Below, piece by piece: positions 27,340 through 51,506 of a stretch of DNA of 64,000 nt. Made by a program: the position numbers and the translations under genes. The notes under the pieces were generated by a model. The model worked only from the letters and a program-made list of their open reading frames with translations, was not told the DNA's origin and searched no databases. This stretch comes from Candidatus Zhuqueibacterota bacterium (GTDB lineage Bacteria > Zhuqueibacterota > Zhuqueibacteria > Thermofontimicrobiales > Thiofontviventaceae): contig JAFGDW010000090.1 of assembly GCA_016931935.1 (NCBI GenBank), forward strand, positions 199 through 64,198, read 5' to 3'. Within the stretch, counting starts at the first letter, position 1; every line of letters starts with the position of its first letter.

Positions 27340-27440
27340 AAATTTCGAGGTCCCATAATTAGTTGGTCAAGGTCATTCTTCTACCTAGTAATCAATGTCA
27401 TTAAGTTAAGCTGATCGTTCTTGATCTTAGATTCCTAATA

Positions 27441-27506
27441 TGCTTCGACTTCGCTCAGCATGAAGCGGTCGTTGACTTCACACTGAGTCCTTCGTCATGC
27501 TCAGGA
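27441..27506. repeat. Hairpin-rich repeat fragment (GCTTCGACTTCGCTCAGCATGAAGCGG...TGACTTCACACTGAGTCCTTCGTCATGCTCAGG), related to elements at 36136, 41400 and 51483
   Basis: Shares GACTTCGAC / GCTCAG / CTGAG words and 20/24 identity with 51483-51506; read directly. Confidence 0.4.
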
Positions 27507-27690
27507 AATACTCCGTCAAAGTGTGAAAAAGTCAAACAACTAATTTTTTTCTTGACTTAATGGCATTGACTTAGTAATTGTTCAAAAATAAATTATCATT
27601 TTGTATTCGTGATGATAATATCTGCAAATTCTGCTTATTCTTTTTATTCGTATGTTGGATGATGCATTAAGTCCACATAAAACGCCATTT

Positions 27691-30600
27691 TTAATTGTGT
27701 GCATTTACCGTATGTTTTATTTTTTGATATTTATTCAACATGCGCTGCATAACGTCTTCTTCAATTGGTTTCGTTAAGAAATCATCCATTCCTGCCTCAA
27801 AACACTTTTCTTTATCAGCCTTCAATGCATGCGCCGTTAGGGCAACAATCGGAGTATGAGAATCATATTCACCCGATAAGGAATTCCGTATTAACCTTGT
27901 CGCTTCAAGTCCGTCCATTTCAGGCATTTGGATATCCATAAGAATAAGGTCAAATGGCTGCTCTTTCAATGATTCGATTGCATGTTTTCCATTCTCGACG
28001 ACGACCACAGAATGCCCCCATTTTTCAAGCAATTTCACCGTGACTTTTTGATTGATTATGTTGTCTTCCGCAAGTAATATTTTAAGCCCGAATGACGATG
28101 ATTCTGAATAAACAGTTTCTGTTACATCATCAACATCATCTACCATACGTTGCTCGACAAGATCAAGATTAATAGTGAAGTGTAACGTCGTCCCTGTCTC
28201 GACGTTACTCTCAATCCAAATCTTGCCGCCCATTATTTCCACCAGCTTTTTAGATATAGTCAATCCGATGCCAATGCCACCGTGCCTTCGTGTGAATGAA
28301 TTATCCGCCTGATTAAACATTTCAAAAATTTTTTCCAGTTTATCATCCGGAATACCAACTCCCGTGTCGGAGACGGTAACATGAACCGGCACTTCGCTAT
28401 GTGGAACGATGCCTTGCTGATCACGTTTTGCAGTTAACGCTATCTCGCCAGCATCCGTAAATTTCAGACTATTACGAATGACATTTAGAATAATTTGCTT
28501 GATAAAATCCGGATCGCCGTAAAGGAAACGGGGCACGTGCGGATCGACTGTGCTTGTAAGTATTAATCCTTTATCCTGTGCCTGCGGCAACAGAAACGCT
28601 GTAGTATTTTTTACTAACTCATGGAAATCAAACGTCTGTTTACTAAGTGTCAATTTGCTCGATTCAATTTCGGTGAAACTTAAAACTTTGTTCAGTATAT
28701 CAAGCAATGAATTTGCTGACCGCTGCACAATGTTGAGGAATTCACGTTGTTCTTCAGTGAGTTTAGTCGATAATGTGAGATTTGTCATGCCGATGATTCC
28801 ATTCATTGGTGTTCGGAATTCATGACTAATGTTTGCCAGGAAACGACTTTTGGCATTGTTTGCGGATTCTGCAAGCTCTTTGGCAGCGTGCAGTTCGTTG
28901 TTAATCGTTTTGAGCTCGCGATTTCGACGGCGGATACTATAGGTGCGCACAAAATGGAATATCAACCCGGTAAGTAAAAATATAAGCATGGCAATAGTAC
29001 GAAACCACCAGGTTTGCCAGAACGGCGGAATAATTTTTATGGCTAATGATTTTGCAGCTTCGTTCCAGATGCCATCATTATTGGACGCTTTTACTCGCAG
29101 TGTATAATTTCCGGGGTCAAGATTGGTATAGGTGACAAATCGCCGGGATGAATTATGGTATGTCCATTTATCTTCAAATCCTTCCAATTTGCAGGCATAC
29201 TCATTTTCGGCAGGCGACGCATAATGCAAGGCTGAAAATTCGATGGAAAATATTTTATCGCTGTAATTCAATGTTATCGCATCGGATTCGGTAATTGACT
29301 TTTTTAATCGAGCATTTGCATCGTCACCAATTATGACCGGTTCATTGAATATTTTTAAATCGGTGAACACAATTTGCGGTGTATATGTATCATCACGGAT
29401 GCTATCGGGATGAAATATTTGAAAACCATTTGGACCCCCAAAGTACATTTCTCCGGTATGTATATTCTTCCAACACGAGTTTACAAAAAATTCATTACTG
29501 ATTAAACCATCGGTAGTATAGTAATTTGAAAACGTCTCTTTTGTCGGATTAAATTTGGAAAGCCCCTTGTTTGTACCGATCCACAAATTTCCATGATCAT
29601 CTTCCAAAATGCTCTGTACCGTATTGTTTGCCAGGCCGTCCTTTTCTTGATAGTTTTTAAATATCAAATATCCATCAGCCTGACACATAAGCTTGTTTAA
29701 ACCGTTCCCGGTACCAAGCCAAAAATTACCAGCTTTATCTTCATGTAAAACGAGCACCTTATTATCGCTAATACTTTGAGGATCATCGGGATTATGCCTG
29801 AAATGTACAAATTCACCTTTTTCGCGGTCAAACCTGTTTAAACCACCGAATCCGGTAGCAATCCAAAAGTTACCCTTACGATCTTCTAACATCGCCCAAA
29901 TAGTGTTATCACTTATACTGTATGGATTATTTATATCTACTTCGTAATGAACAAATCTTCCGGATTTCCGATCAAACTGATGAATTCCCTTATTATAGGT
30001 GCCTATCCATAAATCACCTTGCCTATCTTCGTAAATTGACCAAATGACGTTTTCACGTAGGCTGTATGAATTATCCGGATCTAACTTGTAATGTGTAAAT
30101 TCATAGGTCCGGGGATCAAATTCATCCAAACCATTTTCTGTGGCAATCCACAACATACCATGCCGATCAAAATATAGATAACGAACTAAATCGTTTGCTA
30201 TGCTTTTCGAATTATGCTGATCATTTTTAAACCATTTAAATCTTGGATATTCGTTCGGACAAAGGCGATTTAGACCACCGCCCTTTATGCCTAGCCAGAT
30301 TGCACCGCTACTGTCGCCAACAATTGCCTTCACCGTACTGAGACTGAGACAATCCGTTTGATATGGCCGATTGCTGTATGTTGTAAAAAATCGCCAGCGA
30401 GAATAGTATTTATTAACTCCACCATTTTCTGTTCCCACCCATAGGTTGCCGTTACGATCTTCAACGATACACCGGACATAATTATGTGAAAGGCTATTAG
30501 GATCATTCGGATCGCGCATAATTCGTGTAAAATGTTGTGTTTTTTGATCGAACACATTAAAGCCTCCACCCAGTGTACCGATGAGCAGATTACCATGCCT

Positions 30601-31440: not shown

Positions 31441-31576
31441 AATCGTTCTCCGCCAACCATCACATTTAATTTATATCTTTCAATAACGCATTCATTTCAC
31501 ATGCAAAAAAATTTAATTTCTGTCGCGTGACATTTCTTTGCACCAAGTGCGCTGTTATTTTTATTTTGGTGCTTTC

Positions 31577-31630
31577 ATGTTCCCTTCGGCAAGCTCAGGG
31601 GACGTACGCCAAGCTTGTCGAAACGTACAT
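31577..31630. repeat. Repeat fragment in reverse orientation (CCTTCGGCAAGCTCAGGGGACGTACGCCAAGCTTGTCGAAACGTAC) related to the 36136/41400/51358 elements
   Basis: Reverse complement CCCCTGAGCTTGCCGAAGGGAACATG matches 51358-51381 GCCTGAGCTTGTCGAAGGCAACATG at 21/24. Confidence 0.4.
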
Positions 31631-31663
31631 TTTAAACTTGACATGACACTGGCTTTGTCGCAT

Positions 31664-34600: not shown

Positions 34601-35953
34601 AATGCCATTATTGGTAGCAATCCAAAAATCCCCGGCCTGATCGATGCTTAAAGCACGAACCAAATTATTACAAATGCTGTTGGGATTATTCATATCGTTT
34701 TGGTAATAGGTATATTGACCGGTATTCAAATTTACTTTTTTCAATCCGCTTTCAAGCGTACCCAGCCAAAGGATATCATCATTCTGCTCCTTTGTCATAT
34801 AAATCGCTGTGATGATATTGCTGTTGGCCCCAAATTCATTTTCCGAATTAAGTGTATAGTGATGAAATTGCAGATTACGTTTGTTAAATTTATTCACCCC
34901 TCCGAAATCCGTTCCGATCCACAGCAAACCGGCACTGTCTTCATAAATGGAACAAATGGAATTATTACTCAAACTATTGGGATCATTCGGATCATTAAGA
35001 TAATGGATAAACGTTTCCGATTGACGATTCAACATGCTTAAGCCGCCACCATTCATACCGATCCAAATATTTCCTGCGATGTCTTCAAATACTGAACGGA
35101 CGACGTCGTGACGCAAACCAGTGGGATCATCGGGATTTGCCCGGAAGCGTTTCACTTCGTTTGTTTTCAGATCATATCGATATAAACCACTGCCCCAGGT
35201 GCCAATCCATAAAAATCCATCCCGGTCTTCGATCATGGTAATTTTTCGAAAATTAGTAACGTTGGGATCGATGTCTACTTTTATAAACTGTTCTTTTTTT
35301 CTGTCAAATCGGCTGATACCATCATCATTTCCAATCCAGATTGTTCCGTTGCTGTCTTTATAAATTGCAGTGACATTATCATTAAATAGACCATTTGGTT
35401 TGTCAGCGTTGGAACAATAGTGCCTAAAAAGTCCTTCGGGATTACTCCCTGTCCGCGTATCGTGTTCTGCATTAGGTTTTGAAAATATATTGATTCCGCC
35501 GCCATAGGTCGCAATCCACAATGCGCCATCCTGATCTTCAACAATCGATTGGATTCTGTCATTTGTCAACCCGTTGTCGACTCCCGGATTCGCATTGTAT
35601 ATGATAAAACAATCTTTGCCCCGATCAAATTTGCAGAGTCCGCTTTCGGTCCCAATCCACAACGTGGCATCCCGATCTTCATACATGACATTAATAATGT
35701 TATTACTTATCGTGCTCGGCTCTTTTGGATCATTTTTGTAGATTTTAAAATTATAACCATCGTATCGGTTCAGGCCATCATATGTTCCGAACCACATAAA
35801 CCCCTTACTGTCCTGGAAGATAGAGATGACGGAACTCTGAGACAAACCCTGATCTTTCGATATCCGCTGAAAACGGATATTTTCATTCAATCCGTACAGG
35901 TCAAGACATCGAGAAATGAAAAATAGTATGAGAATAATTTTTGTTTTCATCAT
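31664..35953 (-). CDS. Hybrid sensor histidine kinase/response regulator (Reg_prop/Y_Y_Y sensor, TM, HisKA, HATPase_c, REC, REC)
   Basis: 1429 aa; [11 protein letters not shown]; [17 protein letters not shown]; two REC domains. Confidence 0.85.
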
Positions 35954-36135
35954 AGGCTATAATTAAAAAATAGTTGATAAAATTATAATGTAAATTATAT
36001 AAAATTTACCTATTCAGGCATCCTGCCAATTGACAGCTGCGATGTTCTATCACGAGATTCACGTACTGCTATAATTAGTTTTTTAGTAAACGATCTATCA
36101 ATGGAACAGGCAAAACTATTTAGGGCAAAATTATT

Positions 36136-36293
36136 GTATCCTTTCAATATTGGTTGGTTCTGTTGACTTCGACACGCTCAGTCAACGGTATGTTCCGTAC
36201 CCTGAGCTTGCCGTCTCGCAACGGCGTGCCGCCGCAGTTCGCGGCACGAACGGTGCCGAAGGGTACTCTCTCCATCATTTATTGAACAGATAC
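36136..36293. repeat. Structured ~158-bp intergenic element 'R1' (GTATCCTTTCAATATTGG...GTTGACTTCGACACGCTCAGTCAAC...GTACCCTGAGCTTGCCGTCTCGCAACGGC-GTGCCGCCGCAGTTCGCGGCAC...CGAAGGGTAC...CATCATTTATTGAACAGATAC), nested stem-loops
   Basis: About 85% identical to the 136-bp copy at 41400-41535 apart from an extra ~25-nt GC-rich hairpin insertion; read directly. Confidence 0.5.
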
Positions 36294-36629
36294 AAATTAT
36301 TTTTAAGTAAACACTATTCAGATATGAGTTGTGAACTCCTCTCGGAAATTATTTTTAATTATTTTGCCCTTAATTTGTTTGCCATCATTTTGCATCCGCT
36401 CAATATTTTCCGGCTTTGTTGGCCCACCGCGGTGAGCCCAGCCTACATTCCTTGTCTCGTAGTATTGAAGCGGGAAAAACGAAACACTTGAACAACTTTA
36501 TAAATTTGATATGCCCTCAATTCGTGTGCAATGTTAAGTGTTAACCTCCGTATTTATCAGAAGGTGACATTCACTGTAATTTTTTTATACTCCCGACTCA
36601 GCACGTACTATGTATTTTCGTTCAGACAG

Positions 36630-39600
36630 CTACACATTTCGCATGGCGACCGGAACATACTTTTTCAGCATTTGCATCACTTCATTTATGTCGATGGGTT
36701 TGGAAATATAATCATCCATTCCTGCATTAAGAAATGATTCCTTATCGTCTTTCATTGCATGCGCCGTCATTGCAATAATCGGTATTCCGGAATTTGATAA
36801 AAATTCATCGCTTTTCCGGATTATGCGTGTGGCTTCTACACCATCCATGTTCGGCATTTGAACATCCATAAGTATTAAATCAAATTGTTTCTGTTTTAGG
36901 ATTTCAATAGCTTCTTTTCCATCATTGGCAACTGTCACCTGGTGTCCCCATTTTTTCAAAAAGTTGATTGCAACTTTCTGATTAATGATATTATCTTCTG
37001 CCAACAATATCTTCAACGATGGATTTTCAACTTTACTTGATCCTTCCGCGGCTTCATAACCATCGACTTCATCCACCTTGCCAAGTGTCAACAATATTGT
37101 TTGAATCAAATCGTCCTGACGTACCGGTTTTTGTAAATAGTTATTTATACCAATATTTTTACTGCGCTCAAGATAGCCTTTTTCATTTATCGAACTCATC
37201 ATAACGATTTTCACGTCGTCCCAGGCGTGATTCGCACGGATTTTTTCTGCAATCTCAAATCCATCCATCTCCGGCATTTTTAAATCAAGCAAGATTAACG
37301 AAAACAATTTCTTGTTATCGGAATCGTCACTCATTTTATTCAACGCTTGACTGCCACCCATTGCAATTACCGGATCAAATCCCCATGAAATTAATACATC
37401 ACGTAAAATGATGCAGTTTGTATTATTATCATCGACAATCAGCACGCGCGGCGCTTCCATTTCATGGAACCAATTTCGATAAACCGGTGATTCTTCATCG
37501 GAACCAGGATGAAAAATTCCGGTAAATTGGAACACGCTCCCTTTTCCAACTTCACTTTCAACCCAAATACGCCCCCCCATTAATTCAGATAGTTTTTGTG
37601 AGATCGTAAGTCCAAGGCCAGTACCACCATACTTTCGAGTGGTCGAGACATCAGCCTGGGAGAAACTTTCAAAAATTTTATCGAGCTTGTCGGCTGGGAT
37701 ACCAATTCCCGTATCAGAAACAGAAAAGTGAAGCCCTATCTGATCCGGGTTTGATGCTTTAAAAAATGAGTCGAAATCCACACGAACGATTATTTCACCT
37801 TTTTCCGTAAACTTAAGGGCATTCCCGACAAGGTTGACAATTATTTGGCGCAAACGTCCGGAATCTCCCCGCACTGAAACAGGAACATCATTTTTAATAT
37901 CACATAACAGTTCAACGCCCTTTGTATGCGCCTGAATAGCGAAAGTGGTCAGTGCAGTTTCGATGACATTACGCAGATTGAAATCAACTTCTTCCAACTC
38001 CAGTTTTCCGGCTTCAATCTTCGAAAAATCAAGAATATCGTTTAACAGGTCAAGTAGTGATTCCGCCGATCGTTTCGCAATATTCAAATAGTCGCGTTGC
38101 TGTTTATTGGGGGCTAAATCCAGCGCCAATTCGGTCATGCCAATAATACCGTTCATGGGTGTGCGAATTTCATGACTCATATTAGCCAGAAATTCACTTT
38201 TTGACTGACTTGCAGCTTCAGCATCGAGCTTGGCCTTCTTTAATTTAGCCTCAAATCGTTTGCGTTCATTAATGTTACGTGAAATGCCAACAATCCCCTG
38301 GACGTTTCCATGACTATCCAATATCCGCACTTTAGAGGTTGACACCCAGTTTTCCAGTCTGGAAATCGGATCAATCGCCTTTTCATCTTTATTTAAAATC
38401 GCTTGCCCTGTTTCCATTATTCGCTTTTCATCATGATGAAATTCATTAACAAATTCGGGCGGAAAGAAATCCATATCTGTTTTACCAACCAAATCATGTT
38501 GATCTTTCATTCCTAACGATCGTATATGAGTGAGATTGTTAAGCAGGAATTTGTTCTCCTTATCTTTCATGTAAATAGAATCCGGCACCATATCGATAAC
38601 TGTCTGCAGGACATTTTTTTCATTTGCCAACTGCTGAGTGCGTCGCTCAATAATTTTTTCCAAATGTTTATTATGTTGTTTTACGGTATACATTCTAAGG
38701 AGATGAGCAATGAAAAATGATATCAGCAAAACAAATATAATTATGGAACGGAACCACCATGTTGCCCAGTATGGCGGTGTAATCACAATCTTAATTGCCG
38801 CCCCGGTTTCATTCCAGATTCCGTCGTTATTTGATGCCTTAACATTAAACGTATAAGTCCCTGGATTTATATTCGTATAGGTTGCTTCCCGTTTCGCTCC
38901 GACATAATTCCAGTTTTTATCAAAGCCTTCCATTCTATAGGCATATTCATTCTTTTCAGGATTGATGAAATTCAACGCAACCCACTTAAAACTAAGCATC
39001 TTCTGATTATGCGACAATTTTAGTTGTTGAGTAAAACGAATATGTTGTGGGAGTACGGATTGCGCATTATCGTTGGTAATCGGAACAGATTTATTTAGTA
39101 ACAGAAAATCCGAAAGGTACACAGCAGGCGGTTCCGTATTCGACCGTATGCTGTCTGGATTGAATTGAATAATCCCGTTGACTCCTCCAAAAAGTAATTC
39201 TCCGGCTTTACTTTTAAAGCATGAATTCTCAAAAAATTCAGCTATGTCCAATCCATCATCCAAATCAAAATTTTTGAAGTGTTGAGTATTAAGGTTCAAT
39301 CGAGATAGACCTTCTTTTGTACTGATCCATAAATTGTCATTATTATCTTCAAGCAAAGCACAAATATAATTGCTGATTATGCCATTGTTTTTATAATAGT
39401 GAACAAACGCATCTCGTTGTCGATCGTATTTATTAAGTCCATCCGATGTACCAATCCAAACATTGTGGCGGGAATCTTCATAAAGCGTAATGATATAGTT
39501 ATTACTGATCGAAGCTGAATCATTTGGATCAAAAAAGTAGCTGGTGAATGAATTTTCATTATCTAATCTGGACAATCCTGCCACAGTAGCAATCCAGATG

Positions 39601-41120
39601 CTGCCATCACTGGTAGCATAAATATGAAATCCCCATTCACTCGCCATTGCATGGGGGTCGTCGTGAATTGATTTGTAGGTTATAAACGTTTCATCCTCTT
39701 TATTAAACCGGCTGATTCCGGTGCCATGTGTGACAATCCATAGATTACCATTTTGGTCTTCCGTAATGGAACGAACGTCGTACCCCGGAATACTCTTTTT
39801 GTTACGAGGACTGGGTTCATAATTTTTGAAACGATTTTCCGATTTAATGAACCGCTGTAATCCGCCATCATAACTTCCGACCCATATTTCACCATCGCTA
39901 TCACAGAAAATTTCAAAGACACTTCCACGTTTCAAATCCTTGTTTCCATCCCCGGGTGCAAAATATTTTACAGTACCATTTTTCCGATTGACGACGTTGA
40001 TACCACCGCTATAATAACCAATCCATAAGTTACCATCATGATCTCCCGTAATCGCAGACACTGTGCCGGAAATTGCATCTGTTTTTTCGGGTGGCGTATA
40101 TTTAATGTGCTTGAATGATTGCTGATTCTTCGTCAAGCTTATACCGCCAAAGTTCATTCCCAGCCAGATATTCTCCTGTCGGTCCTGATAAATGGTATTT
40201 ATCGCAATGCCGGAAAGCGATGATTCATTACGAATGTCATGCACATATTGTTGAAAGGATAAATCTTGTTGATTGTAAATTCGCAATCTATCTATATCAC
40301 TCACCCAAACATGGCTATCTTTATCCTGGAAGATAGTCTTTATATAACCAGTACTCGATTTAACGGATTGAAATTTTAACGATGTTTTATCAATAATAAA
40401 AATACCATTCTCTCTTGTACCAACCCAAATAGCTTTGTCATTTTCCATCAACGTCGTAATTGAATAATTTTTCCAGCCACTGTCGGGGATATATGGCGAG
40501 AGCTTATGCTCCTGGAAGGAATAAACAAATAATCCATCTTTGCCGCCTATCCAGAGATTTTCATTTTCATCCTGAAGTATATATTCAACATGTATTTTTA
40601 AATCGACGACAAATTTAAATACCTGATTATCCCGATTCAGTGTATACAGTACCCCACGATCGTTAATCACAAACAATGTACCGTTGCGATTTTCAAAAAA
40701 GCCACGAATATCGGATAAATGGCCGCTGTCATCAGCTTGACGGATATAATTTGTAAAATTATCATTTTTGGGATTGTATTTGCTGATGCCATCCTGAGTG
40801 CCAATCCATAGCTCCGAGCATAAAGAGTAGTACAGAATATTTATATAATTATGTAAAATGCTGGTGGTATCCCGATGGCTTCTACGATAGATTTGAAAAT
40901 TATAGCCATTAAATTTATTCAACCCATTTGTTGTGGCAATCCACACAAATCCTTCGGCATCCTGCTGGATATCGGTCACAATACTGTTGGACAATCCATC
41001 GGCGGTGCCGTAATGCTTAAATTTAAGATTGCTAACATCAATCGCACCCAATGATGTGCTGTTGTAAACAACCAGAACAATCAAGGCTAATAATTTGGCA
41101 ATCTGCTTCATGAACCACAA
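36630..41120 (-). CDS. Hybrid sensor histidine kinase/response regulator (Reg_prop/Y_Y_Y sensor, TM, PAS, HisKA, HATPase_c, REC, REC)
   Basis: 1496 aa; TPPYWATWWFR; [17 protein letters not shown]; two REC. Confidence 0.85.
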   Translation of the reverse strand: MWFMKQIAKLLALIVLVVYNSTSLGAIDVSNLKFKHYGTADGLSNSIVTDIQQDAEGFVWIATTNGLNKFNGYNFQIYRRSHRDTTSILHNYINILYYSLCSELWIGTQDGISKYNPKNDNFTNYIRQADDSGHLSDIRGFFENRNGTLFVINDRGVLYTLNRDNQVFKFVVDLKIHVEYILQDENENLWIGGKDGLFVYSFQEHKLSPYIPDSGWKNYSITTLMENDKAIWVGTRENGIFIIDKTSLKFQSVKSSTGYIKTIFQDKDSHVWVSDIDRLRIYNQQDLSFQQYVHDIRNESSLSGIAINTIYQDRQENIWLGMNFGGISLTKNQQSFKHIKYTPPEKTDAISGTVSAITGDHDGNLWIGYYSGGINVVNRKNGTVKYFAPGDGNKDLKRGSVFEIFCDSDGEIWVGSYDGGLQRFIKSENRFKNYEPSPRNKKSIPGYDVRSITEDQNGNLWIVTHGTGISRFNKEDETFITYKSIHDDPHAMASEWGFHIYATSDGSIWIATVAGLSRLDNENSFTSYFFDPNDSASISNNYIITLYEDSRHNVWIGTSDGLNKYDRQRDAFVHYYKNNGIISNYICALLEDNNDNLWISTKEGLSRLNLNTQHFKNFDLDDGLDIAEFFENSCFKSKAGELLFGGVNGIIQFNPDSIRSNTEPPAVYLSDFLLLNKSVPITNDNAQSVLPQHIRFTQQLKLSHNQKMLSFKWVALNFINPEKNEYAYRMEGFDKNWNYVGAKREATYTNINPGTYTFNVKASNNDGIWNETGAAIKIVITPPYWATWWFRSIIIFVLLISFFIAHLLRMYTVKQHNKHLEKIIERRTQQLANEKNVLQTVIDMVPDSIYMKDKENKFLLNNLTHIRSLGMKDQHDLVGKTDMDFFPPEFVNEFHHDEKRIMETGQAILNKDEKAIDPISRLENWVSTSKVRILDSHGNVQGIVGISRNINERKRFEAKLKKAKLDAEAASQSKSEFLANMSHEIRTPMNGIIGMTELALDLAPNKQQRDYLNIAKRSAESLLDLLNDILDFSKIEAGKLELEEVDFNLRNVIETALTTFAIQAHTKGVELLCDIKNDVPVSVRGDSGRLRQIIVNLVGNALKFTEKGEIIVRVDFDSFFKASNPDQIGLHFSVSDTGIGIPADKLDKIFESFSQADVSTTRKYGGTGLGLTISQKLSELMGGRIWVESEVGKGSVFQFTGIFHPGSDEESPVYRNWFHEMEAPRVLIVDDNNTNCIILRDVLISWGFDPVIAMGGSQALNKMSDDSDNKKLFSLILLDLKMPEMDGFEIAEKIRANHAWDDVKIVMMSSINEKGYLERSKNIGINNYLQKPVRQDDLIQTILLTLGKVDEVDGYEAAEGSSKVENPSLKILLAEDNIINQKVAINFLKKWGHQVTVANDGKEAIEILKQKQFDLILMDVQMPNMDGVEATRIIRKSDEFLSNSGIPIIAMTAHAMKDDKESFLNAGMDDYISKPIDINEVMQMLKKYVPVAMRNV

Positions 41121-41399
41121 CTCCAGACAAAATCATATAAAACAATTGCAATAATTGAATTCGGGGGTATATAATAATTCTATTCTATTTATCGGTTTGA
41201 CTTAAAAATTATCCAGACCTATCGTACAAGATTTTTTAAATTTCATCTGTATTTCGGTGCATGTATGCGATTCAAAATAGATCCGCATTTTTCCAGATTC
41301 GATTTATCAGTGCAGAATTTAATTTTGGGATAACCAATTTGTGAAGACTGTTGAAGGACTATATAAACTTGACTTTTGAGGATGTGAATAATATTAATT

Positions 41400-41535
41400 G
41401 TATCCTTTCGATATTGGATGGTTGTGTTGACTTCGACAAGCTCAGTCAACTGTATGTCCCGTACCCTGAGCTTGCCGTCTCGCAGCACGAACGGTGGTCG
41501 AAGGGTACAGCCACCATCATTTATTGAATGGATAC
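41400..41535. repeat. Structured 136-bp intergenic element 'R2' with imperfect ~25-bp terminal inverted repeats (GTATCCTTTCGATATTGGATGGTTG ... CCACCATCATTTATTGAATGGATAC) and internal nested stems (GTTGAC..GTCAAC; AAGCTCAG..CTGAGCTT; GTACCC..GGGTAC; CTTCGAC..GTCGAAG); candidate MITE or structured RNA
   Basis: Read directly; terminal arms match 19/25 as inverted repeat; paralogous to R1. Confidence 0.5.
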
Positions 41536-41774
41536 TATTATGTCCACACCCTTAAAAAAATGTGAAACACTGTACTAAGCTCTTATATTAGGCGTTGAAT
41601 CCTTATGTAATTATCGGATTATTCAATGAAGTTGAAATTAGTATCTGAGAAGTTTTTTCTGCCATATTTCCACCCTAGCGGATTTTCAATTGGCAGAAAA
41701 TTCAAAAGCATTTTGGACAGGATAACTGGTGGAAATCCATATAATCCTGTTAATTTCTATTGCTTGGTTCTGGT

Positions 41775-44534
41775 TTATCGAGGTTGGGCATTAATCTTTA
41801 TGGCTGCATACTTCATAATGAGATTACGGACTTCGTCGACATTTATCGGTTTGGAAACATAACCATCCATACCGGCATCCAAAAATCGTTCGCGATCGCC
41901 TTTCATGGCATGCGCTGTCATGGCGATTATGGGTATACTCGATTTGGATGATCGCCGAATAATCCGGGTTGCTTCAATACCATCCATATTTGGCATTTGT
42001 ATATCCATCAGCACGATATCGAAGTCTGTTGAATTTACAAGGTGAACAGCTTCCCGGCCATCGTTAGCAACTGTCACGTCATGCCCCCATTTTTTTAACA
42101 AGCTTGTGGCAACTTTTTGATTTATTATATTATCTTCTGTCAGCAGAATATGTAACGGCGTCATACTGTCATTAGTCTTTTCCTCATTTGTTATTGAACA
42201 ATCATCTGACGTTTTTTCGAGTGCAGCTAATATCGAGTTATATAGATCGGATTGTCGAATAGGCTTTTGGAGAAAATGATTGATTCCGATAATTTTACTG
42301 CGCCGGACATCACTGCGGTGAATGACCGATCTCATCAGGATAATTTTAGTTTTGTCCCAATCCGTATTCATTCGAACTTTTTCCGAAAACTTAATTCCAT
42401 CCATTCCAGGCATATGAACATCGACAAGCATCAGCGCGAATTTCTGTTCACTTCCTGATGATTTATTCAGTAATTCAAACGCAATATTCGCACTATTAAC
42501 ACAGATAACATTAAAACCAAAACATAATAATGAATCCTTAAGGATAGTACAATGTGTAGCATTATCATCAACAATCAAAACTTTAATTCCATCCATCCTG
42601 CTCAGGTTATTACGATAGACTTGTGTGCATTCAATATTGCCTGGTTTAAACTTTGCGCTTAATTTAAAAACACTACCTTTCCCCATCTGACTTTCAACCT
42701 GAATATTCCCGCCCATTAATTCCGCCAGGCGTCGGGATATCGTTAAACCCAGACCGGTGCCACCATATTTTCGCGTATTTGAATTATCCACCTGGGAAAA
42801 ACTATCAAAGATTGTATTAAGCTTTTCGGTGGGGATGCCAATGCCTGTATCCACGACCGAAAAATGAAGTTCGAGTATGTTTTCGTCCCCCGTTTTGTTT
42901 GCCTCAATCATCTCAACGCGGAGAATAATCTCTCCGGTCTCTGTAAATTTGATGGCGTTACTTATCAAATTAATCAGAACCTGGCGTAATCGACTTGGAT
43001 CCCCTTTAATCGCCGAGGGGACTTTTTGTTTTATATCACATAATAACTCCAGCGATTTCGCATGTGCCTGAACAGCAAGCGTGGTTACAACTGTTTCCAG
43101 GACTTTTCGCAAATCAAAATCAATCTCTTCAAGTTCCAGCTTGCCTGCCTCGATTTTCGAAAAATCAAGGATATCATCTAAAATATCAAGCAAGGCTTCC
43201 GCTGATTGTTTGGAAATATTAAGATGTTCACGCTGTTGGTTTGTAAGCTCCGAATCCAACAATAGTTCAGCCATGCCAATTATGCCATTCATCGGGGTAC
43301 GGATTTCATGGCTCATATTTGCCAGGAATTCACTTTTTGCCTTGTTTGCAGCTTCCGCATCTTGTTTTGCTTTTTCTAGTTACTGTTCATATTTTTTTCG
43401 TTCAATAACTTCCCGTTGAAGCGAATCACGTGAAACGGTTGTTGTATTTAAATTTCTGACCATTTCATTAAAACAGATTGTCAATTCCCCGATTTCATCC
43501 TGGGTCTGTGCTTCCATAATTTCATTCAACTGACCTTTGCTAATAGCTTTAGTCGCATCCCTGAGATCTATAATGGGTTTGGTAATTCTTTTTGAGAGAT
43601 AGAAACTGACAACAATAGCCAGGCCAAAACTAAAAACCATTGTTATTATCGACATAATAATAATGGTAAAAACAGTTTCATAGGCTTCCCAAAGCGGTAG
43701 TTCAACTACGACTGCCCAATTAGGCATGCCAAGATGTTCGTGAGTTGTAAGAACGACAGTATTGATAATTCCTCTTGAAATTTCAGCGCCGCTATGATGA
43801 ACCTGTTCGCTGCCATTTACAAATTCCTTAATTTCTTTCAGATTGGCCAAATTTTCATGTTTAAGCACCCGGCTGATATCTGTAAATGCGATAAGATCAC
43901 CCTGCAAATTAACTACATAAACCGATCCATGTTTGCCAATTTTTATTGTTTCAATTAAATCCCACATGAATTTCAAATTTAATTCGGCCATGAAAACACC
44001 CTGAAAATCTCCAAAAACATCTTTAACCGGTACAGCAATAATAACCTGAGGTTCACTTGTTACCTCATCGAAATATAATGGACTTATGTATCTATTGTGA
44101 GTCGCCAGAACCGCAGCAATTTCATCTGTTTTTTGAAATGCCAACTGGCTAACTGATAATCCGGATAAGCGCGAGACTTTCAAGATTTTTTGGCTATTCT
44201 TATTCCTAATAGCTATCTGCCGGAAAGCTATTTCAGATCCCAACAACTTTTCAAGCAACATTTCCTGTGATTCACTCCCGGCGGTTGCTAAGCCACCAAC
44301 ATAAGCAATAGTTTCCAGTTGCTTGAATTTATCATCTATATAGTAACTTACTTGCTCAGCAGCTTCTTTAACAATTAATTGCAATTGCCCGTCAATTACC
44401 TTTTGTTGAGTTTGGTAACTGAAATACAATTCAAAACTGCTAAAAATCAGCATTACAATTGCAATCACTAAAAAGAATGCTATTTTTAAAGTTCTCGTCA
44501 AACTATGGAATTGTTTTGCGGATTGTTCTATCAT
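41775..44534 (-). pseudogene. Hybrid histidine kinase (2 TM + periplasmic sensor, HAMP, HisKA, HATPase_c, REC, REC) interrupted by a single in-frame TAA stop (43380-43382) between the HAMP/coiled-coil and the H-box
   Basis: ORFs 43380-44534 and 41775-43316 are in the same frame; translation across the stop reads ...[39 protein letters not shown], aligning with intact paralogues (e.g. [26 protein letters not shown]); stop equals one-base change from GAA/CAA. Confidence 0.6.
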
Positions 44535-44805
44535 ATTTTAATTTTCATTGCAGTGTCGATTTTGTGTAGACTCAAAAAAAAATGTCGTTTTCGAAGCTAT
44601 TCATCGCACAGCTCTGCTATGAGCATAACAATTGATTTTTCAATTTCACGTATCCATTCAATAATTAAGGATTTTTGAATCCATACAATTTCAAATTTCT
44701 AAATTTTCAATTTTTTCTACAATTACTATATTGAACACGGCCATTGATTAAACATCTAAATAAGCCAAACTATGAACATAATATTGATCGCTTTTAACCT
44801 TTGCC

Positions 44806-44834
44806 TATTAGCTAATGGCCAACAGCTAATAGCG
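44806..44834. terminator. Hairpin CTATTAGCT-aatggccaac-AGCTAATAG (perfect 9-bp stem) downstream of the - strand binding-protein gene
   Basis: Read directly; ~110 bp past the stop at 44942. Confidence 0.35.
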
Positions 44835-44941
44835 TGTTAAGGATAGGTATTGAACGAGCCGCTCAATTAATATGTTTGAAATATGACCGTTTGAAGTACA
44901 ATATTAGTAATGATACATCGTCGCACCAACGATGGATATGC

Positions 44942-45964
44942 TTATCGAATAATTTTATCCGCCATACTTAACAATCCTTCACTTACGTTCAGTTTAAAAT
45001 GTCTGGACGTATTATAATCAAACTCGAAAAAGCTCTCCGCCGAGACAACCGCAACGTTGCCAGGATTTGTGCCCTTTAAAATTTTATCCGCCAATAACGC
45101 TGCCTGCTTACCTGTGGAAATCAAATCGACATTCACACCAAAAATTGATCGATAGCCATTGACCGACATTAGTGCGCCGCCAATCGGAATTTTATGTTGA
45201 TAGGCAAATTTACCCATGACTTCAAAGGCATCGGCAGTGACAGAAAGGGGTTCAGCCACAAACAAAATTGCATCCATGCCAATATCTTTTTGACGCCCAC
45301 GTTTCTCTAAATAGTTTTGAATTTCCAGCGCATTATCCGCAGGAAATTCTTCCAAACTTACTCCGTTTGATAGAGCTGCGGGTTGCAATGCCTTGATTTG
45401 ACTGGCGACAATGGGATAACCGCGCTGATAGGGAATCCATATTCGTTTCGCATTTGGCACGAGTTCCAGCATTATTTCAAATCTTTTAATTGCAATATCC
45501 GGCCCCGGATAACGAACACCAGTTACGTTCCCGCCCGGATGGCTGACACTTTGGACAAGATCCGTGCCTTCAATATTGGCGAAGCAAAATAACACGGGAA
45601 TGTCACTACCTTGCGTGATCGCCTTGGCTGTCATTGACACTTCAGTCGGGAATGTCAGAATAAGATCGACCTTGCTCTTGACAAACTGTTTCAGGATTTG
45701 CTCTTCTTTATCTGGTTCAAAGTTCGTCTTTTCTATATCGTAAACAATATTTTCACCTTCAATATATCCCTTTTCGTTCATCCCGGTTTTAAATCCATCG
45801 ATTACATTGGAAATGTAATCCAGTCCGCATAAAATTCCCACCTTACGTACCTTTTGTTGCTGCGGGTTTTGCTGACAGTTTATCAGTGAGAGCAACAATA
45901 AAAGTACAACGCATTTGGAAAAATCTTTAGTAGGAATTATCCACCTAAATTTTTTCATATTCAT
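44942..45964 (-). CDS. Periplasmic ABC-transporter-type substrate-binding protein of the ABC_sub_bind family (solute-binding protein usually partnered with sensor kinases)
   Basis: 340 aa, signal peptide; KVGILCGLDYISNVIDGFKTGMNEKGY...VDLILTFPTEVSMTAKAITQGSDIPVLF typical of ABC_sub_bind periplasmic binding proteins; no permease/ATPase genes adjacent, flanked by sensor kinases. Confidence 0.6.
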   Translation of the reverse strand: MNMKKFRWIIPTKDFSKCVVLLLLLSLINCQQNPQQQKVRKVGILCGLDYISNVIDGFKTGMNEKGYIEGENIVYDIEKTNFEPDKEEQILKQFVKSKVDLILTFPTEVSMTAKAITQGSDIPVLFCFANIEGTDLVQSVSHPGGNVTGVRYPGPDIAIKRFEIMLELVPNAKRIWIPYQRGYPIVASQIKALQPAALSNGVSLEEFPADNALEIQNYLEKRGRQKDIGMDAILFVAEPLSVTADAFEVMGKFAYQHKIPIGGALMSVNGYRSIFGVNVDLISTGKQAALLADKILKGTNPGNVAVVSAESFFEFDYNTSRHFKLNVSEGLLSMADKIIR

Positions 45965-46193
45965 CTCTCCATAATAGTTAGTAAGGTAATTTTTGTATCA
46001 TTATCCCAACCTGGACAAGCCAGAGCCAAAATAAGAATTCCAACCACGGAATGCACTTATTAACACGGAAAAAGATTAGGTAAATTCGCGTATTCTTTTC
46101 TGTGTTATTCTGTGACTTCAGTAGTAAACAAAACTTTTGTACCAATTGAAAATCAGCCGTGATGGAAAGGGACAGAAAATTATTCGTCTGTTA

Positions 46194-49100
46194 CTAAATT
46201 TTATTTGTTGTGGCTGTTTTCACTTTAATCGAATATTTATGTAATATTCTTTTAATTTCATCGACATTGATCGGCTTGGAAATATATTCATCCATGCCGG
46301 CATCCAGGAATCGTTCACGGTCCCCCTTCATGGCGTGTGCGGTCATAGCGATAATGGGAATATGTTTATTTAAATTGAGCAATTTAGAGTTTCGAATTGT
46401 CCGGGTAGCTTCAATTCCATCCATATTCGGCATTTGTACATCCATGAAAATGATATCAAATGAATTCAATTCCAAAGCCTCCAAAGCCTCCTTACCATCA
46501 TTCGCAATGGTTATATTATGCCTCCACTTTTTAAACAAACTGGCGGCTACTTTCTGATTCACCAAATTATCTTCTGCAAGTAATATTTCCAATCGGTTCA
46601 TTTCAGTATTGTCCGAATTGATGAAGCCATTTCCATCAGTCTGTTCCCTTTTTCCAAATGCCGATAAAATTGTTTGTATCAAATCCACTTGCCGTACCGG
46701 TTTTTGGAGAAATTCATCAATTCCGTTTACTTTACTACGTTCCAAATCGCCACGATCGACAACCGAGCTCATCATAACAATTCGAATACCACTCCATTTG
46801 ACGTTCGCTCTCACTTTTTCAGTGAATTCAAAACCATTCATTTCCGGCATCTGGTAGTCGAGCAGAATTAAATCAAACAGACTTTCTTCAACAGTTGCCT
46901 GATAGAGTTTATTTAACGCTTCCTTTCCATTCCAGGTAATTGTTGCATCAATCCCATAGACTTTCAGAACATCATGCAAAATTATGCAATTCGTATTATT
47001 ATCATCAACAATGAGTACACGCATGTCGCCGAGTTCTGTAAATCGCTTTTTAAAATCATTAATTTCTACCACTTTTCCTGGCTTAAGATATGCCGTAAAC
47101 TGAAAAGTACTACTACATCCGAATTCACTCTCTACCCAAATTTGGCCATCCATCAATTCAGACAGTTTTTGAGAGATGGTGAGTCCAAGTCCGGTGCCGC
47201 CATATTTCCTGGTCGTTGAGGCGTCAACCTGAGAAAAACTTTCAAAAATTTTATTCACCTTGTCCGCTGGAATTCCAATGCCCGTGTCTTTAACAGCTAC
47301 GTGAATGCCGATGAATCCATCCTTTTTATGTTCAGCCAGTTGAACCTGAACAACAATCTCTCCTTTTTCCGTGAATTTAATTGCGTTCCCGATTAAATTG
47401 ACAACAATTTGTCGGAGCCTGCCAGGATCGCCTTTGAGTGCATGCGGAACATCTGGCGCTATATTCAATAGCAATTCCAGTTTCTTGGTGTTTGCCTGAA
47501 TGGCAAGTGTTGTCACGGCTGTTTCAAAAACTTTGCGCAAATCAAAATCAATTTCCTCCAATTCCAATCTGCCCGCTTCAATTTTTGAAAAGTCAAGTAT
47601 ATCATTGAGTAAGTCCAAAAGTGATTCTGCGGATTGTTTCGCGATATTCAAATAATCATGCTGCTGCTTTGTCAATTCCGTATCAAGCATAAGTTGGGTC
47701 ATGCCAATAACACCATTCATCGGCGTGCGAATTTCATGGCTCATATTGGCTAAAAATTCACTTTTTGAACGGCTAGCCGCTTCAGCAATTTCTTTTGCTT
47801 GTTTTAATTCTTGTTCAATTCGTTTTATCTCATTAATCGGACGACTGATTCCTACAATTCCCTGTATTTCTCCATTATTATTTAAAAATGGAACTTTCGA
47901 TGTTAATACCCAATTTGTTTCGCCGGTCGATTCATTTATTCCGTTTTCTTCTTTGTTCAATATTGATCTTCCGGTTTTTAATATTTCATTTTCATCTTTA
48001 TGAAAATCATTTACTCTATCAACCGGGAAAAAATCCAGATCCGATTTGCCTAAAACGTCATCCTGACTTCTAACTCCTAGAGATTCATAATGCGCACGAT
48101 TATTCAGGAGAAAATGATTGTTAGTGTCCTTTAAATATAATGAATCCGGAACCAAATCGATAAATGTTCGAAGCAGTTTTTTCTCTTCTTCAACCTGAAG
48201 CGTTCGTTCTTCAACTTTTCGTTCAAGTAATTTATTTCGCTCCCTAATATTTCGTGTTCGAATTTGATAAATGACCATAATCATCAAAACAGTGAAACTT
48301 ATGAGAATTAATCTGAACCACAGCGTTTGCCAAAAAGGTGGAGTAATCGTAATGTTAATAGCTGTTCCTGTTTCGTTCCACACATGGTCATTATTCGATC
48401 CCTTCACTCGAAACGTATAGTGACCGGGATCAAGGTTGGTGTAAGTCGCCATCCGCTGGTCTGCCGGCACATAATTCCACGACTTATCAAATCCTTCCAT
48501 CTTATAGGCGTACTGATTTTTTTCAGGCGCCACAAAATCGAGCGCTGCAAACTTAAACAAAAAGACTGATTGTTTGTAAGATAAAATAAGCTTTTCAGAT
48601 TCAGTAATTTGTTTTTTTAAGGGTGATGCTTCCCCACCTATTTTGACAGATTTATTAGAAATCTGGAAATCAGTAATAACAATAGGTGGCATCATTGCGT
48701 TATCTGTTATTTGATCAGGATCAAATACATTAAATCCATTATCACCCCCAAAGTACATTTTCCCAACTCTGGATTTAAAGTGGGATTTTTTAATAAACGT
48801 ATTACTCTGTAATCCATCCGCTTTGGTATAGTTCTTGAAAGTCTCATTAACCTGATTGAACCGGGAAAGCCCGCCATTTGAACTGATCCACAGGAATCCG
48901 TTATTATCCTTTTCAATTCCGAAAATCATATTATTGGGCAAGCCATCTGTGGTGAAATATCTTTTAACTGCGCCAGATTTTCTATTAATTCTATTGAGGC
49001 CATTTAAGGTGGCGATCCATAGAGTGTTGCTATCCTCTTCGAAAATGGAAGTGATGAAATTATTAGACAAACTATTGACATTATCCTGATGATGAGTATA

Positions 49101-50756
49101 ATTGACAAACGTTTCGGTTTTTGGGTTAAAGATTGTGAAACCTTCCGTTGTACCGATAAGTAAATTTCCCCTTGAATCCGTTTTTAAAACCTCAACATAA
49201 TTATTGATTAAACCACTATTTTCAACATTGTAAGCCTTAAATGATTTCTTATTTTTATTAAATTTTGTAATACCATTCTGTGTTGCAAGCCATAAGTTTC
49301 CATTTCGATCTTCGACAATATCAAAAACATTGTTATTTGATAAAGCAGAATTTTCAGATGTCCACGTTTGAAACGTTTTTGTTTTGAGGTTGAACCTACT
49401 AATTCCACCAGTCCATGTACCAATCCATAATTCATTTTCAGAATCAACGTAAACTGTCAGAACACCATCAGAATTTAAATTTGAATTTTTAGAATTATAA
49501 CTTTCGAACTTTTCCGTATGTGGGTTAAATTTATTTAGTCCCCCACCGGCAGTTGCGATCCAGATAATACCTTGTTGATCTTCACTAAATTCCCAAACAA
49601 AATTATGGCTTAGGCTGTTGGCTTGTTCAGATTTAGTTTTGTAATGAATAAATCCTTGTTTATTGTAGTGAATAACATTAATACCACCTTCATATGTTCC
49701 AACCCAAATATCCCCAATGTTATCGCAATAAATAGATTGGATTGAACTACTACTCAAACCGAATGGATCGTTCAGATTACTATTGAAATGTACAAATGTT
49801 TTCCTATCCTTTCGAAGAAAATCCAGACCACTATTTTCCGTTCCGATCCAAATACATCCGCTTTTATCATTGCATAATGTTAATACTCGATTGAACGAAA
49901 GGCTATTGTTGTTTTCCGGATTATGGCTATAATTAGTAAAATAATTTGCTGTTATATCATCTACGTGAATCGATGAAAGTCCATTTCCCAGAGAGCCAAA
50001 CCATAAATAACCATCAGAATCTTCAAGTATTGAAGTAATTGAATTTCCTGACAAACTATGAGAATTGTTCTCGTGATGCTTGTACTGGATAAAATCTTTG
50101 GTTTCATAATTATAAATATTTAATCCAGCATCTGCCGTAGCAATCCACAAATTTCCTTTACTATCTTCGAATAGTTGTCTTAGAGTATTACTACTCAAGC
50201 TATTTGGATCGCTTGGATCCGTTAAATATTGAATTGTCTGATTGTTTACCGAATCAAATAATAATAATCCATTTCCATTCGTGGCAATCCACAGGTTGCC
50301 TCGACTATCTTTGATTACGCTCCATAAATTATAGCTTTCGAGGTTATAACCATTCTGTTTGTTGTAGTTTATAAAACAATCCCGATCGCGGTTATAGCAA
50401 CTTAATCCCTGAAAGGTAGCAATCCATAAATTACCTTGTTGATCTTCACATATAGACCGAATTGAATTTGAATTTATACTCGTGGAATCATCTGGCTTAT
50501 GGCGATAAACAGTGAAATTATAGCCATCAAATTTATTAAGTCCATCAAAGGCGCCAAACCACATAAATCCCTGATGATCCTGGAAAATGCACGACACGTT
50601 GGAGTGGGAAAGTCCGTCATCCGTGGTGAGATGATCAAATTTTATATTATTTAAATTCGAAGAAATTAATACGGGGATTTGAAAACCGAATATGAACAAT
50701 ATAAAAGGGAATACCATAAAGAATTTTCTGAACTTATAAACCATAATCTCTATCAC
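46194..50756 (-). CDS. Hybrid sensor histidine kinase/response regulator (Reg_prop/Y_Y_Y sensor, TM, PAS, HisKA, HATPase_c, REC, REC)
   Basis: 1520 aa; [11 protein letters not shown]; [17 protein letters not shown]; two REC; N-terminus closest to paralogue 56219-60796. Confidence 0.85.
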
Positions 50757-51357
50757 CTCAATTTTTTATGAATCAGCCTATTTAACCATACAGGAATATA
50801 GACACTTGACTATACTCCTTATCATCACACCAGGCTGGCATCGTAGTTTGCAGCATACAACGTCCGTATTTTCATCGAGTGCAATTGTTTTATCGCACAT
50901 ACTCAAAACTGATCTTTGCGAAAGTCCGGTATGTATAGAATGATGCTCGCATGGATTATGTTGTGCTGACAATATTCCAGGCATGTGCGTAAACGAAAGC
51001 GTTTGCATCAGGTAGCGGGCACGTTCGTTCAGTAGATGTACAATAATTGAGTGGGAAAAATTGATATGTATCGGAAGAAGCTGCACTCTTACATGCTTAT
51101 GGCACACAAGAAAACAGCAAAATATGGTAAACAATGGTATAATAAATTTCAACATTCCACACAACATCATCGTCGTCTTCTCGCACATTTCATAGAAAGA
51201 AATTTGAACCGCTACAATAACTTACATGGATTCACTCGCATCACTATCAATTGCATGTTTGCATTCCTGCACATGATTCAACATCGTTTTTAGTTTAGCA
51301 ATATTATACTTTAAACTAGCATGACTTGAACATTTTTGCTTTCCTGGTCGATCAGTT

Positions 51358-51506
51358 GCCTGAGCTTGTCGAAGGCAACATGTACGCCATTGTATTTTCG
51401 AATTTTGTGGGGCTGTATCAAAAGTCTTGTCAAATTTCATCCTGAACGTAGTCGAAGGATGATAACTCACGATAAAACAACATGCTTCGACTTCGCTCTG
51501 CATGAA
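51358..51506. repeat. Two repeat fragments in the 865-bp spacer: TTGCCTGAGCTTGTCGAAGGCAACATGTACGCC (51355-51388, core 51358-51381) and TGCTTCGACTTCGCTCTGCATGAAG (51483-51506), related to R1/R2 and to 27441/31577
   Basis: Sequence identity to other copies read directly. Confidence 0.4.

Follow-up and report, generated by a model that had tools for sequence, protein, structure and literature searches.

The kinase array and its repeats

We analysed a stretch of 64,000 nucleotides (nt) from a Candidatus Zhuqueibacterota bacterium (contig JAFGDW010000090.1, positions 199 to 64,198), referred to below as the window, in which about 11 genes for hybrid sensor kinases of roughly 1,500 amino acids (aa) follow one another in tandem on the minus strand from 14.5 kb to the window end. 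The kinases combine Reg_prop, Y_Y_Y, PAS, HisKA, HATPase and receiver domains, and for one of them the closest relative from another organism was only 30-35% identical in a protein homology search covering 5.8 billion proteins. The paralogues are at most 63% identical to each other in amino acids and at most 68% in nucleotides. The G+C content of the window is 39.5% and its intergenic share 9.5%, and the spacers of the array hold the repeats studied here: a small hairpin with a conserved loop, and a longer element called R, with two full copies (R1 and R2) and one mini element. These repeats are the sole sequence that the spacers have in common, R being present in two of them and a hairpin of any kind in five of about 12. 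An initial annotation of this DNA had described R1 and R2 together with shorter relatives, and it had overlooked the hairpin of about 25 nt as a unit, the link of this hairpin to a GIY-YIG nuclease gene, and the mini element.

The hairpin unit

The hairpin is a unit of about 25-30 nt, in which a variable stem of 3-7 bp encloses a conserved 'loop' of 13-14 nt, TGAG-S-YW-S'-TCGAA. There are 11 copies in the window (six minus, five plus), either solo or as doublets in (-)(+) order, the doublets being those of R1, of R2 and of 31577-31628. Seven of the eight exact matches to TGARC-N3-4-NCGAA were intergenic, all seven flanked by a complementary stem of 3-6 bp, and a motif scan allowing at most one mismatch placed 8 of 8 matches in intergenic DNA. 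A covariance model (CM) built from 96 hairpins, none of them from the window, was run against the window with filters off. It recovered four copies at E ≤ 1.4e-4 (51353-51381, 41424-41452, 36160-36188 and 31577-31605), and all the other hand-called copies were among its marginal matches at E values of 1-5.

The top CM match in the window (42 bits, E 5.2e-10) is a solo hairpin on the plus strand at 51355-51379 (GTTGCC TGAGCTTGTCGAA GGCAAC; CM span 51353-51381). Two further solo hairpins lie at 51437-51462 (plus strand, wider span 51435-51464, TCATCC TGAACGTAGTCGAA GGATGA, with a 14-nt loop and a CM match at E 1.1) and at 51481-51504 (minus strand, CATGC AGAGCGAAGTCGAA GCATG, with one loop mismatch). 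The doublet outside R consists of a minus-strand half at 31582-31600 (CCC TGAGCTTGCCGAA GGG; CM span 31577-31605, 23.9 bits, E 1.4e-4) and a degenerate plus-strand half at 31601-31628 (GTACG CCAAGCTTGTCGAA ACGTAC), called from its sequence, its fold and a partial CM match at 31612-31621 (E 5). The remaining solo copies are both on the minus strand, one at 27440-27461 (ATGC TGAGCGAAGTCGAA GCAT, with a 14-nt loop, a marginal CM match at E 1.1, and 93% identity over 29 nt to 51479-51507) and one at 27488-27506 (TCC TGAGCATGACGAA GGA, marginal at E 2.6), with a degenerate GTTGAC-type module between them at about 27470-27487. No T-run follows the solo hairpins, and Rfam gave no match in the window at gathering score and none at E ≤ 10 over 27300-51700.

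The words CCTGAGCTTGCCG, TCGAAGG and GACTTCGAC, by which the initial annotation had recognised short relatives of R at 27441-27506, 31577-31630, 51358-51388 and 51483-51506, are indeed present there. Their reading as fragments of R has to be given up, as each short copy is a complete hairpin with a stem of its own (ATGC, TCC, CCC, GTTGCC, TCATCC and CATGC) and the loop alone is common to them.

Stem covariation was measured on 121 distinct copies from viral contigs, chosen by loop sequence only. The two loop-proximal stem pairs were paired in 84% and 79% of these copies, with CG, GC, AU and UA all in use, and the covariation score was 0.426 as against 0.19 after shuffling (reached in 0 of 500 trials) and 0.11-0.18 for slid partners. 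The loop was examined in a second sample of 229 loops of 13 nt, chosen by their TGA...GAA ends and a stem only. Positions 5 and 8 were G-C in 154 of them, C-G in 70 and something else in five, and position 4 was G in 97%, position 10 C in 99% and position 9 T in 95%. From the pattern at positions 5/8, 4 and 10 it follows that inside the 'loop' S and S' form a covarying pair, which a G-C pair closes, leaving a tip of 2-3 nt and a bulged T. All the window copies have loops of the C-G type. By analogy, the flanking UGA and GAA could form a U-A pair and tandem G.A/A.G pairs, in which case the whole unit would be one irregular hairpin, and we take its loop to resemble a CUUG-type tetraloop that is closed by G and has tandem G.A pairs. 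The loop sequence lacks self-complementarity. A hammerhead-like core, a mimic of the tRNA T-arm or D-arm, an integron attC site and a CRISPR repeat were weighed as other identities and fit poorly. An origin of the stems from the target site fits poorly as well, since their sequence is rich in GC where the spacer is rich in AT, and they are found again in other phyla.

The R elements

R1 occupies 36136-36293 and R2 41400-41535, neither of them assigned to a strand. R1 is a 158-bp composite resembling a MITE (miniature inverted-repeat transposable element), with AT-rich terminal inverted repeats (TIRs) around a GC-rich core of (-)(+) hairpin modules and nested GC hairpins, and R2 is a 136-bp copy of the same type, aligned to R1 with blastn and MAFFT. 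That these two are real repeats, as had been proposed, was borne out by their boundaries, which are sharp: the similarity runs exactly from GTATCC to GGATAC, and the flanks are unalignable. In blastn, identity was 93% for the initial 85 nt and 86% for the final 49, and in a global alignment 122 of 135 positions were identical (90.4%), with one indel of 23-24 nt that corresponds to an additional GC-rich hairpin carried by R1. The initial annotation had seen the extra hairpin correctly, but its figure of about 85% identity was too low. The imperfect inverted termini it described are also real: the ends are AT-rich imperfect inverted repeats of 22 nt (GTATCCTTTCAATA / GTATCTGTTCAATA in R1), which agree at 12 of the first 14 positions and at 17-20 of the first 30.

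With the R1/R2 alignment defining the boundaries, a putative 8-bp target-site duplication, AAATTATT, flanks R1 at 36128-36135 on the left and 36294-36301 on the right (8/8 match), and the flanks of R2, TATTAATT and TATTATGT, are identical at 6/8 positions. The mini element at 44650-44686, likewise without strand, has 37 nt and is no more than the two inverted ends (GTATCCATTCAATAA...TTGAATCCATAC). Over 15/15 nt its left arm equals the right end of R2 and its flanks, AATTTCAC and AATTTCAA, are identical at 7/8, and the element suggests that the TIR frame exists without the hairpins. A pattern scan of the window with the R end motif gave 10 matches when 3.2 were expected, and those with at most one mismatch were all at R ends or in the mini element. 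There is no open reading frame (ORF) in R1, R2 or the mini element (158, 136 and 37 bp).

The core of R is made of two hairpins in (-)(+) order. The first, GTTGAC TTCGACA[A/C]GCTCA GTCAAC, is module A, found on the minus strand at 36160-36188 in R1 (loop TGAGCGTGTCGAA; CM 37.2 bits, E 1.4e-8) and at 41424-41452 in R2 (loop TGAGCTTGTCGAA; 40.6 bits, E 1.4e-9). The second, GTACCC TGAGCTTGCCG[...]YCGAA GGGTAC, is module B on the plus strand, where nested GC-rich hairpins break the loop. In R1 it spans 36197-36266, with CCGAA at the loop end and two nested hairpins, one more than in R2, where it spans 41461-41508, with TCGAA at the loop end, a single nested hairpin of 20 nt and a marginal CM match at 41465-41504 (E 3.7).

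By their anatomy, R1, R2 and the mini element look like MITEs with 8-bp target duplications. The first two are small, code for no protein and end in TIRs, with duplications of 8 bp on either side and flanks that are unrelated, and the MITE option put forward in the initial annotation thus fits them. As its other option, the same annotation had offered that the kinase genes have a conserved structured 5' leader or a small RNA. R1 and R2 are indeed located upstream of a kinase start codon on the minus strand, at 183-280 nt from it, and they fold far better than shuffled sequences (z-scores of -4.7 on the plus and -6.1 on the minus strand for R1, and -5.0 and -4.6 for R2), but long inverted repeats fold well whatever their function. 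Nor does the folding energy favour one strand consistently, as R1 folds better on the minus strand (-66.0 kcal/mol, -61.9 on the plus) and R2 on the plus strand (-54.5, -48.0 on the minus), so that the strand-asymmetric compensatory pattern claimed for the nested stems does not hold, and two copies give no power for covariation. Only two of about 11 paralogues have an R copy, and the hairpins occur in both orientations, at variable distances and not at all in most spacers. Nothing above chance was found among promoter signals around R1 and R2, there were no terminator-like sites in 35900-36700 or 41100-41800, and Rfam was empty for the region even at E ≤ 10. Neither genome nor metagenome scans returned an R copy, and the TIRs, the flanking duplications and the relative made of ends only indicate transposition. 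We regard a leader or small RNA role of R1 and R2 as highly improbable.

It had also been suggested that R mediated the tandem duplication of the kinase genes by recombination. The R copies are 90.4% identical and the paralogues at most 68% in nucleotides, which makes R far younger than the duplications, and since the spacers share only the repeats, of which R is in two, R was not their cause. Judged by these divergences, the R copies would have arrived long after the kinase duplications and independently of each other.

Distribution outside the window

A 23-mer of the first R hairpin (module A of R2) was found at 37 loci in about eight phyla in a scan of one genome per species. The phyla are Bacteroidota, Ignavibacteria (Melioribacteraceae), Chlorobi, Chloroflexota, Acidobacteriota, Latescibacterota, Desulfobacterota and Alphaproteobacteria, and the lineages include Flavobacteriia and other Bacteroidota, Melioribacteraceae, Chlorobi, Caldilineaceae, Chloroflexaceae, Roseiflexus, Ardenticatenaceae, Pyrinomonadaceae, Latescibacterota, Syntrophobacteraceae and Hyphomicrobiales. 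At every one of the 37 loci the similarity to R was limited to the hairpin, and the R end motif was missing from 1.79 Mb of fetched loci. A 15-mer of the loop alone was present in at least 120 viral contigs, with a stem of at least 3 bp in 61% of the matches (about 6% expected).

In the fetched loci and the window taken together, only 17.7% of the DNA is free of ORFs of 120 aa or more, yet 89 of 120 hairpin copies lay there. Between co-directional genes, 27 copies were in sense and 23 in antisense orientation (n=50). Clustering of the ORFs within 2 kb brought out no kinase family recurring beside the hairpins elsewhere, the neighbours in about eight other phyla being unrelated genes.

These data bear on a further explanation, in which the hairpins are a host RNA signal (a stabiliser of transcript ends, a terminator independent of a U-tract, or an insulator between kinase genes) that would be retained because every spacer requires one, and R1 and R2 larger versions of it. 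All window copies lie in spacers of a co-directional array, after the stop codon of one kinase gene and before the start of the next, the hairpins are stable, their stems covary, and the tetraloop likeness of the loop would suit an RNA. The REPs (repetitive extragenic palindromes) of Escherichia coli have also been proposed as regulators in 3' untranslated regions (bioRxiv 10.64898/2026.03.23.713779). The orientation of the copies speaks against such a signal: as the loop is not self-complementary, only a single orientation would yield the same RNA, but both are used in the window (6 minus, 5 plus) and elsewhere (27/23). Over half of the spacers are free of copies, a scan for T-run terminators found none, some copies elsewhere are in-frame inside ORFs, and the TIRs and flanking duplications of R would be superfluous for an RNA function. 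RNA readings of either kind are disfavoured by the use of both orientations, by the lack of copies in most spacers and by the TIRs and duplications of R, and we find the RNA signal quite improbable.

A second TIR-bounded repeat was seen in the Melioribacteraceae metagenome-assembled genome (MAG) Tobar13m-G18, with at least eight copies of about 125-190 nt (loci L004, L006, L013, L014, L023, L024, L027 and L037). It is bounded by …GCGTGTTGCA / TGCAACACGC… as inverted ends, and its two hairpin modules, arranged in (+)(-) order, are the R hairpin and a second hairpin, GTGCAT TGAGCTTGTCGAA ATGCAC. On sequence grounds it appears to be a second TIR element around R-type hairpins, unrelated to R. In many of the phage-contig copies (viral loci L038-L157), an outer stem CCGTTCG…CGAACGG surrounds the hairpin, and the CGAACGG in the nested insert of module B in R1 and R2 may be a relic of such a phage-type outer stem. 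In annotations, the hairpin is presumably the source of spurious ORFs of the 'PELVEG/FDKLR' type. In the literature searched, which did not extend to subscription journals, there was no microbial paper on this hairpin repeat or on a link between GIY-YIG genes and hairpin repeats, and the hairpin is absent from both the RepRanger and the GTAG/CGTC papers.

Association with a GIY-YIG nuclease

When the ORFs within 2 kb of the hairpins were clustered, a protein of about 95 aa recurred near them, which is a GIY-YIG catalytic domain (Pfam E values of 1e-17 to 1e-19) assigned to UPF0213 (PDB 1zg2, E 4e-19). Its gene abuts the hairpin in 8 of the 37 genome loci. In a reverse test, 80 metagenome loci were picked by the protein alone, with search peptides inside the catalytic domain, and hairpins were found within 300 nt of the GIY-YIG gene in 75 of them. 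The first 300 nt downstream of the gene held 7.97 hairpins per kb, and just upstream of it the density was 2.62 per kb. At distances above 1.2 kb, the flanks of about 250 kb held no hairpins except for three at about 3.6-3.9 kb downstream, two of which form the doublet of locus L160.

The arrangement is also ordered. With the end of the domain homology taken as the gene end, the nearest downstream hairpin has the (-) orientation in 66 of 74 loci, usually with a (+) coming after it, as in the (-)(+) doublet of the R1/R2 core, and the nearest upstream hairpin is (+) in 23 of 29. In loci of the FCB group (Fibrobacteres, Chlorobi and Bacteroidetes), the doublet usually starts about 30 nt past the catalytic domain. 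The GIY-YIG ORF continues through the first hairpin in 57 of the 80 loci, and as a result of this the annotated protein lengths range over 94-169 aa. The loop type is uniform within a locus, with 53 loci G-C only, 19 C-G only and none mixed (248 loops), and it tracks the relatedness of the proteins, as 66 of 72 nearest neighbours agree when 61% would be expected. Near-identical strains differ from each other by whole hairpin units only. In 19 GIY-YIG/hairpin loci Rfam found nothing but tRNAs, and in locus L238 only chance matches to eukaryotic long non-coding RNAs.

The hairpins could be independent, and the gene a free-standing homing endonuclease that uses them as a landing site and has no role in the window copies. 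The fixed position of the gene relative to the doublet would agree with this, as would the fact that the doublet or the upstream region is directly repeated on both sides of the gene, which is expected after homing into an array. There is no such gene near 29 of the 37 genome loci or near any of the viral-contig copies, and REPs are documented as targets of insertion sequences (IS; PMC1525189). However, hairpins are almost absent away from the gene in the flanks of the 80 loci, and these genomes therefore seem to be without a large independent pool of targets. The homogeneity of the loop type within a locus and its agreement with the protein tree fit co-evolution or local generation better. 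We consider the landing-site reading unlikely.

Several individual loci show how gene and hairpins can be combined. A Calditrichaeota MAG has the same layout of GIY-YIG gene and hairpins, with a segment from upstream duplicated after the gene: in its locus L238 (5844-6030 and 6397-6640), about 190 nt from upstream of the gene are repeated directly after it. The repeated stretch spans the (+) hairpin and the first GIY-YIG codons, and looks as it would after a tandem duplication or a homing event. In L165 (2151-4004; also in L163, L164 and L167), hairpin units are in-frame in the C-terminal part of an ORF of 617 aa for an HsdM-like DNA methylase, where they encode insertions of the PEVLEG / PEALEG type, and the GIY-YIG gene begins at the stop of this ORF. 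Five Flavobacteriia loci (L009, L012, L018, L028 and L035), which are syntenic with each other, have a hairpin after the GIY-YIG gene, then tandem half-units with a period of 18 nt (…cgacaagctcagtcaac…), and then hairpins of another loop type (TGAGGCACTCGAA). Locus L006 of Melioribacteraceae holds two tandem GIY-YIG genes of another subfamily (4423-5154), each beside an apparent tRNA 3' fragment and without hairpins, from which the hairpin link appears specific to one GIY-YIG subfamily.

Other genes of the array

One unit of the array, at 41775-45964, is atypical. It has an ORF with dCache_1 and HAMP domains (43380-44534), a gap of 63 nt and an ORF with HisKA, HATPase and two receiver (REC) domains (41775-43316), as if a single Cache-type hybrid kinase had been split or frameshifted, and a gene for an ABC_sub_bind periplasmic binding protein (44942-45964) adjoins it. 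Between two kinase genes on the minus strand there is an ORF of 136 aa (50778-51188), Cys/His-rich, of low complexity and without a Pfam match, which may be no real gene. The hairpin cluster 51353-51504 is directly upstream of it.

Comparison with known repeat systems

The closest analogues of the window repeats are MITEs and the REP/REPIN-RAYT systems, the latter being REPs, their doublets (REPINs) and the REP-associated tyrosine transposases (RAYTs). The REP systems share with the present hairpins that they are short, GC-rich, intergenic and often arranged as inverted doublets, that dispersed orphans exist beside copies flanking one small nuclease-type gene, and that non-autonomous partners are proposed (PMC3116915, PMC3333891, PMC3733652). 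They differ in the conserved part, which here is the loop with the inner mini-stem, the stems being variable and the GTAG or CGTC foot tag (the criterion of PMC3733652) absent. The associated gene is a UPF0213 GIY-YIG gene and not a Y1 (HUH) transposase gene, there being no Y1 cluster among the neighbouring ORFs, and the hairpins of the Bacteroidota loci sampled cluster around the gene and are not dispersed. Membership in REP/RAYT fails on two defining features, the GTAG/CGTC tag and the Y1 transposase.

R1, R2 and the mini element resemble bacterial MITEs in being shorter than 200 bp and non-coding, with imperfect TIRs of about 22 nt, 8-bp duplications and AT-rich intergenic sites. In contrast to MITEs, only three copies of the R family were seen, and the core is a doublet of an unrelated hairpin found across phyla and not the remnant of a transposase. 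We know of no parent IS with ends matching R.

The palindromic elements of Rickettsia are 100-150 bp in length, belong to one lineage and can sit in-frame in protein-coding genes. The hairpins in-frame in the HsdM-like ORF and, in 57 of 80 loci, at the 3' end of the GIY-YIG ORF are similar in this respect, whereas the window hairpins are all intergenic. Elhai et al. reportedly described in 2008 the small dispersed repeats (SDRs) of Nostocaceae, hairpin-forming repeats of 21-27 nt with compensatory changes. To our knowledge, no nuclease partner of the SDRs has been named. SDRs are reportedly nested in each other and in mini-transposons, much as the hairpins are nested in module B of R1 and R2. 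They are reported as confined to Nostocaceae (PMC5861425), which sets them apart.

The free-standing GIY-YIG homing genes, such as seg of phage T4, are small stand-alone genes between host genes (PMC2988022, PMC2330249). The likeness here is that the gene of L165 lies between restriction-modification genes and that the GIY-YIG gene can be flanked by duplicated sequence. Seg-type enzymes differ in having an added DNA-binding domain and long asymmetric duplex sites, whereas the hairpin-linked protein, of about 95 aa and of the UPF0213/YhbQ type, is nothing but a catalytic domain, and its gene is adjoined by repeated hairpins.

Proposed explanation and significance

Taken as a whole, the data are best explained by two layers of repeat DNA, selfish hairpins and MITE-like R elements, that are passengers of AT-rich spacers, and we consider this explanation likely. 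In the first layer, the hairpins would be selfish or semi-selfish repeats at the DNA level, acting as the cis partner of a UPF0213-type nuclease (as its substrate or homing site) in a manner similar to REP and RAYT. The autonomous form would be the nuclease gene with its hairpin doublets, and the window copies would be orphan, non-autonomous derivatives. In the second layer, R1 and R2 would be a MITE that carries a hairpin doublet or was invaded by one, probably mobilised by a separate transposase of the DDE type that makes 8-bp duplications.

Several points weigh against this explanation. A six-frame hmmsearch of the window found no GIY-YIG gene of the hairpin-linked subfamily, and for this reason the window hairpins are counted as orphans and a partner nuclease in the host, of candidate division KSB1, is assumed. 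The 80 metagenome loci are 70-100% identical to one query protein and presumably almost all from Bacteroidota, so that generality across phyla is only sampled, and their hairpins are mostly local to the gene and not dispersed like classical REPs. The linkage of gene and hairpin could also reflect a gene targeting pre-existing hairpins or hairpins regulating the gene; that the nuclease acts on the hairpin is what we infer. For the second layer, the evidence consists of two full copies and one mini copy of R, all within 64 kb. No full R was found outside the window (the scan of the genome collection with the R hairpin returned the hairpin of about 25 nt only, and a metagenome scan with a 22-mer specific to R was empty), and no autonomous element sharing the R ends was present in the loci examined. 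The 8-bp duplications sit in AT-rich DNA, where we estimate the chance of such a match at about 1e-4 to 1e-3 for 8/8 and about 1e-2 for 6/8.

Beyond the two layers themselves, the hairpin may, as substrate, homing site or replication unit, be a cis partner of the UPF0213/YhbQ GIY-YIG nucleases in a broader sense, forming a second, independently evolved system of nuclease plus hairpin, comparable to RAYT/REPIN but with another nuclease fold, of which the KSB1 copies and the R core would be non-autonomous offspring. We put this forward tentatively, as a possibility somewhat less probable than its opposite. Such a system, if true, would extend over the FCB group, with orphan hairpins in many other phyla and in phage contigs.

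For the kinase locus the result is deflationary. The repeats neither regulate the kinase genes nor caused their duplication; they are uninformative on kinase regulation and not a driver of gene amplification. The feature of the window is itself ordinary mobile DNA, and it is the hairpin family that merits follow-up. The hairpin model would be of practical use in masking false genes and in explaining hypervariable intergenic and in-frame insertions in metagenome assemblies. We know of no established function for the UPF0213/YhbQ family, and among 8,000 candidates scored the UPF0213-type proteins made up at least 7,999 clusters at 90% identity. In case the nuclease acts on the hairpin, this huge orphan protein family would gain a function that can be tested, and bacteria would have, besides REP and RAYT, a second long-lived partnership of a nuclease and a repeat.

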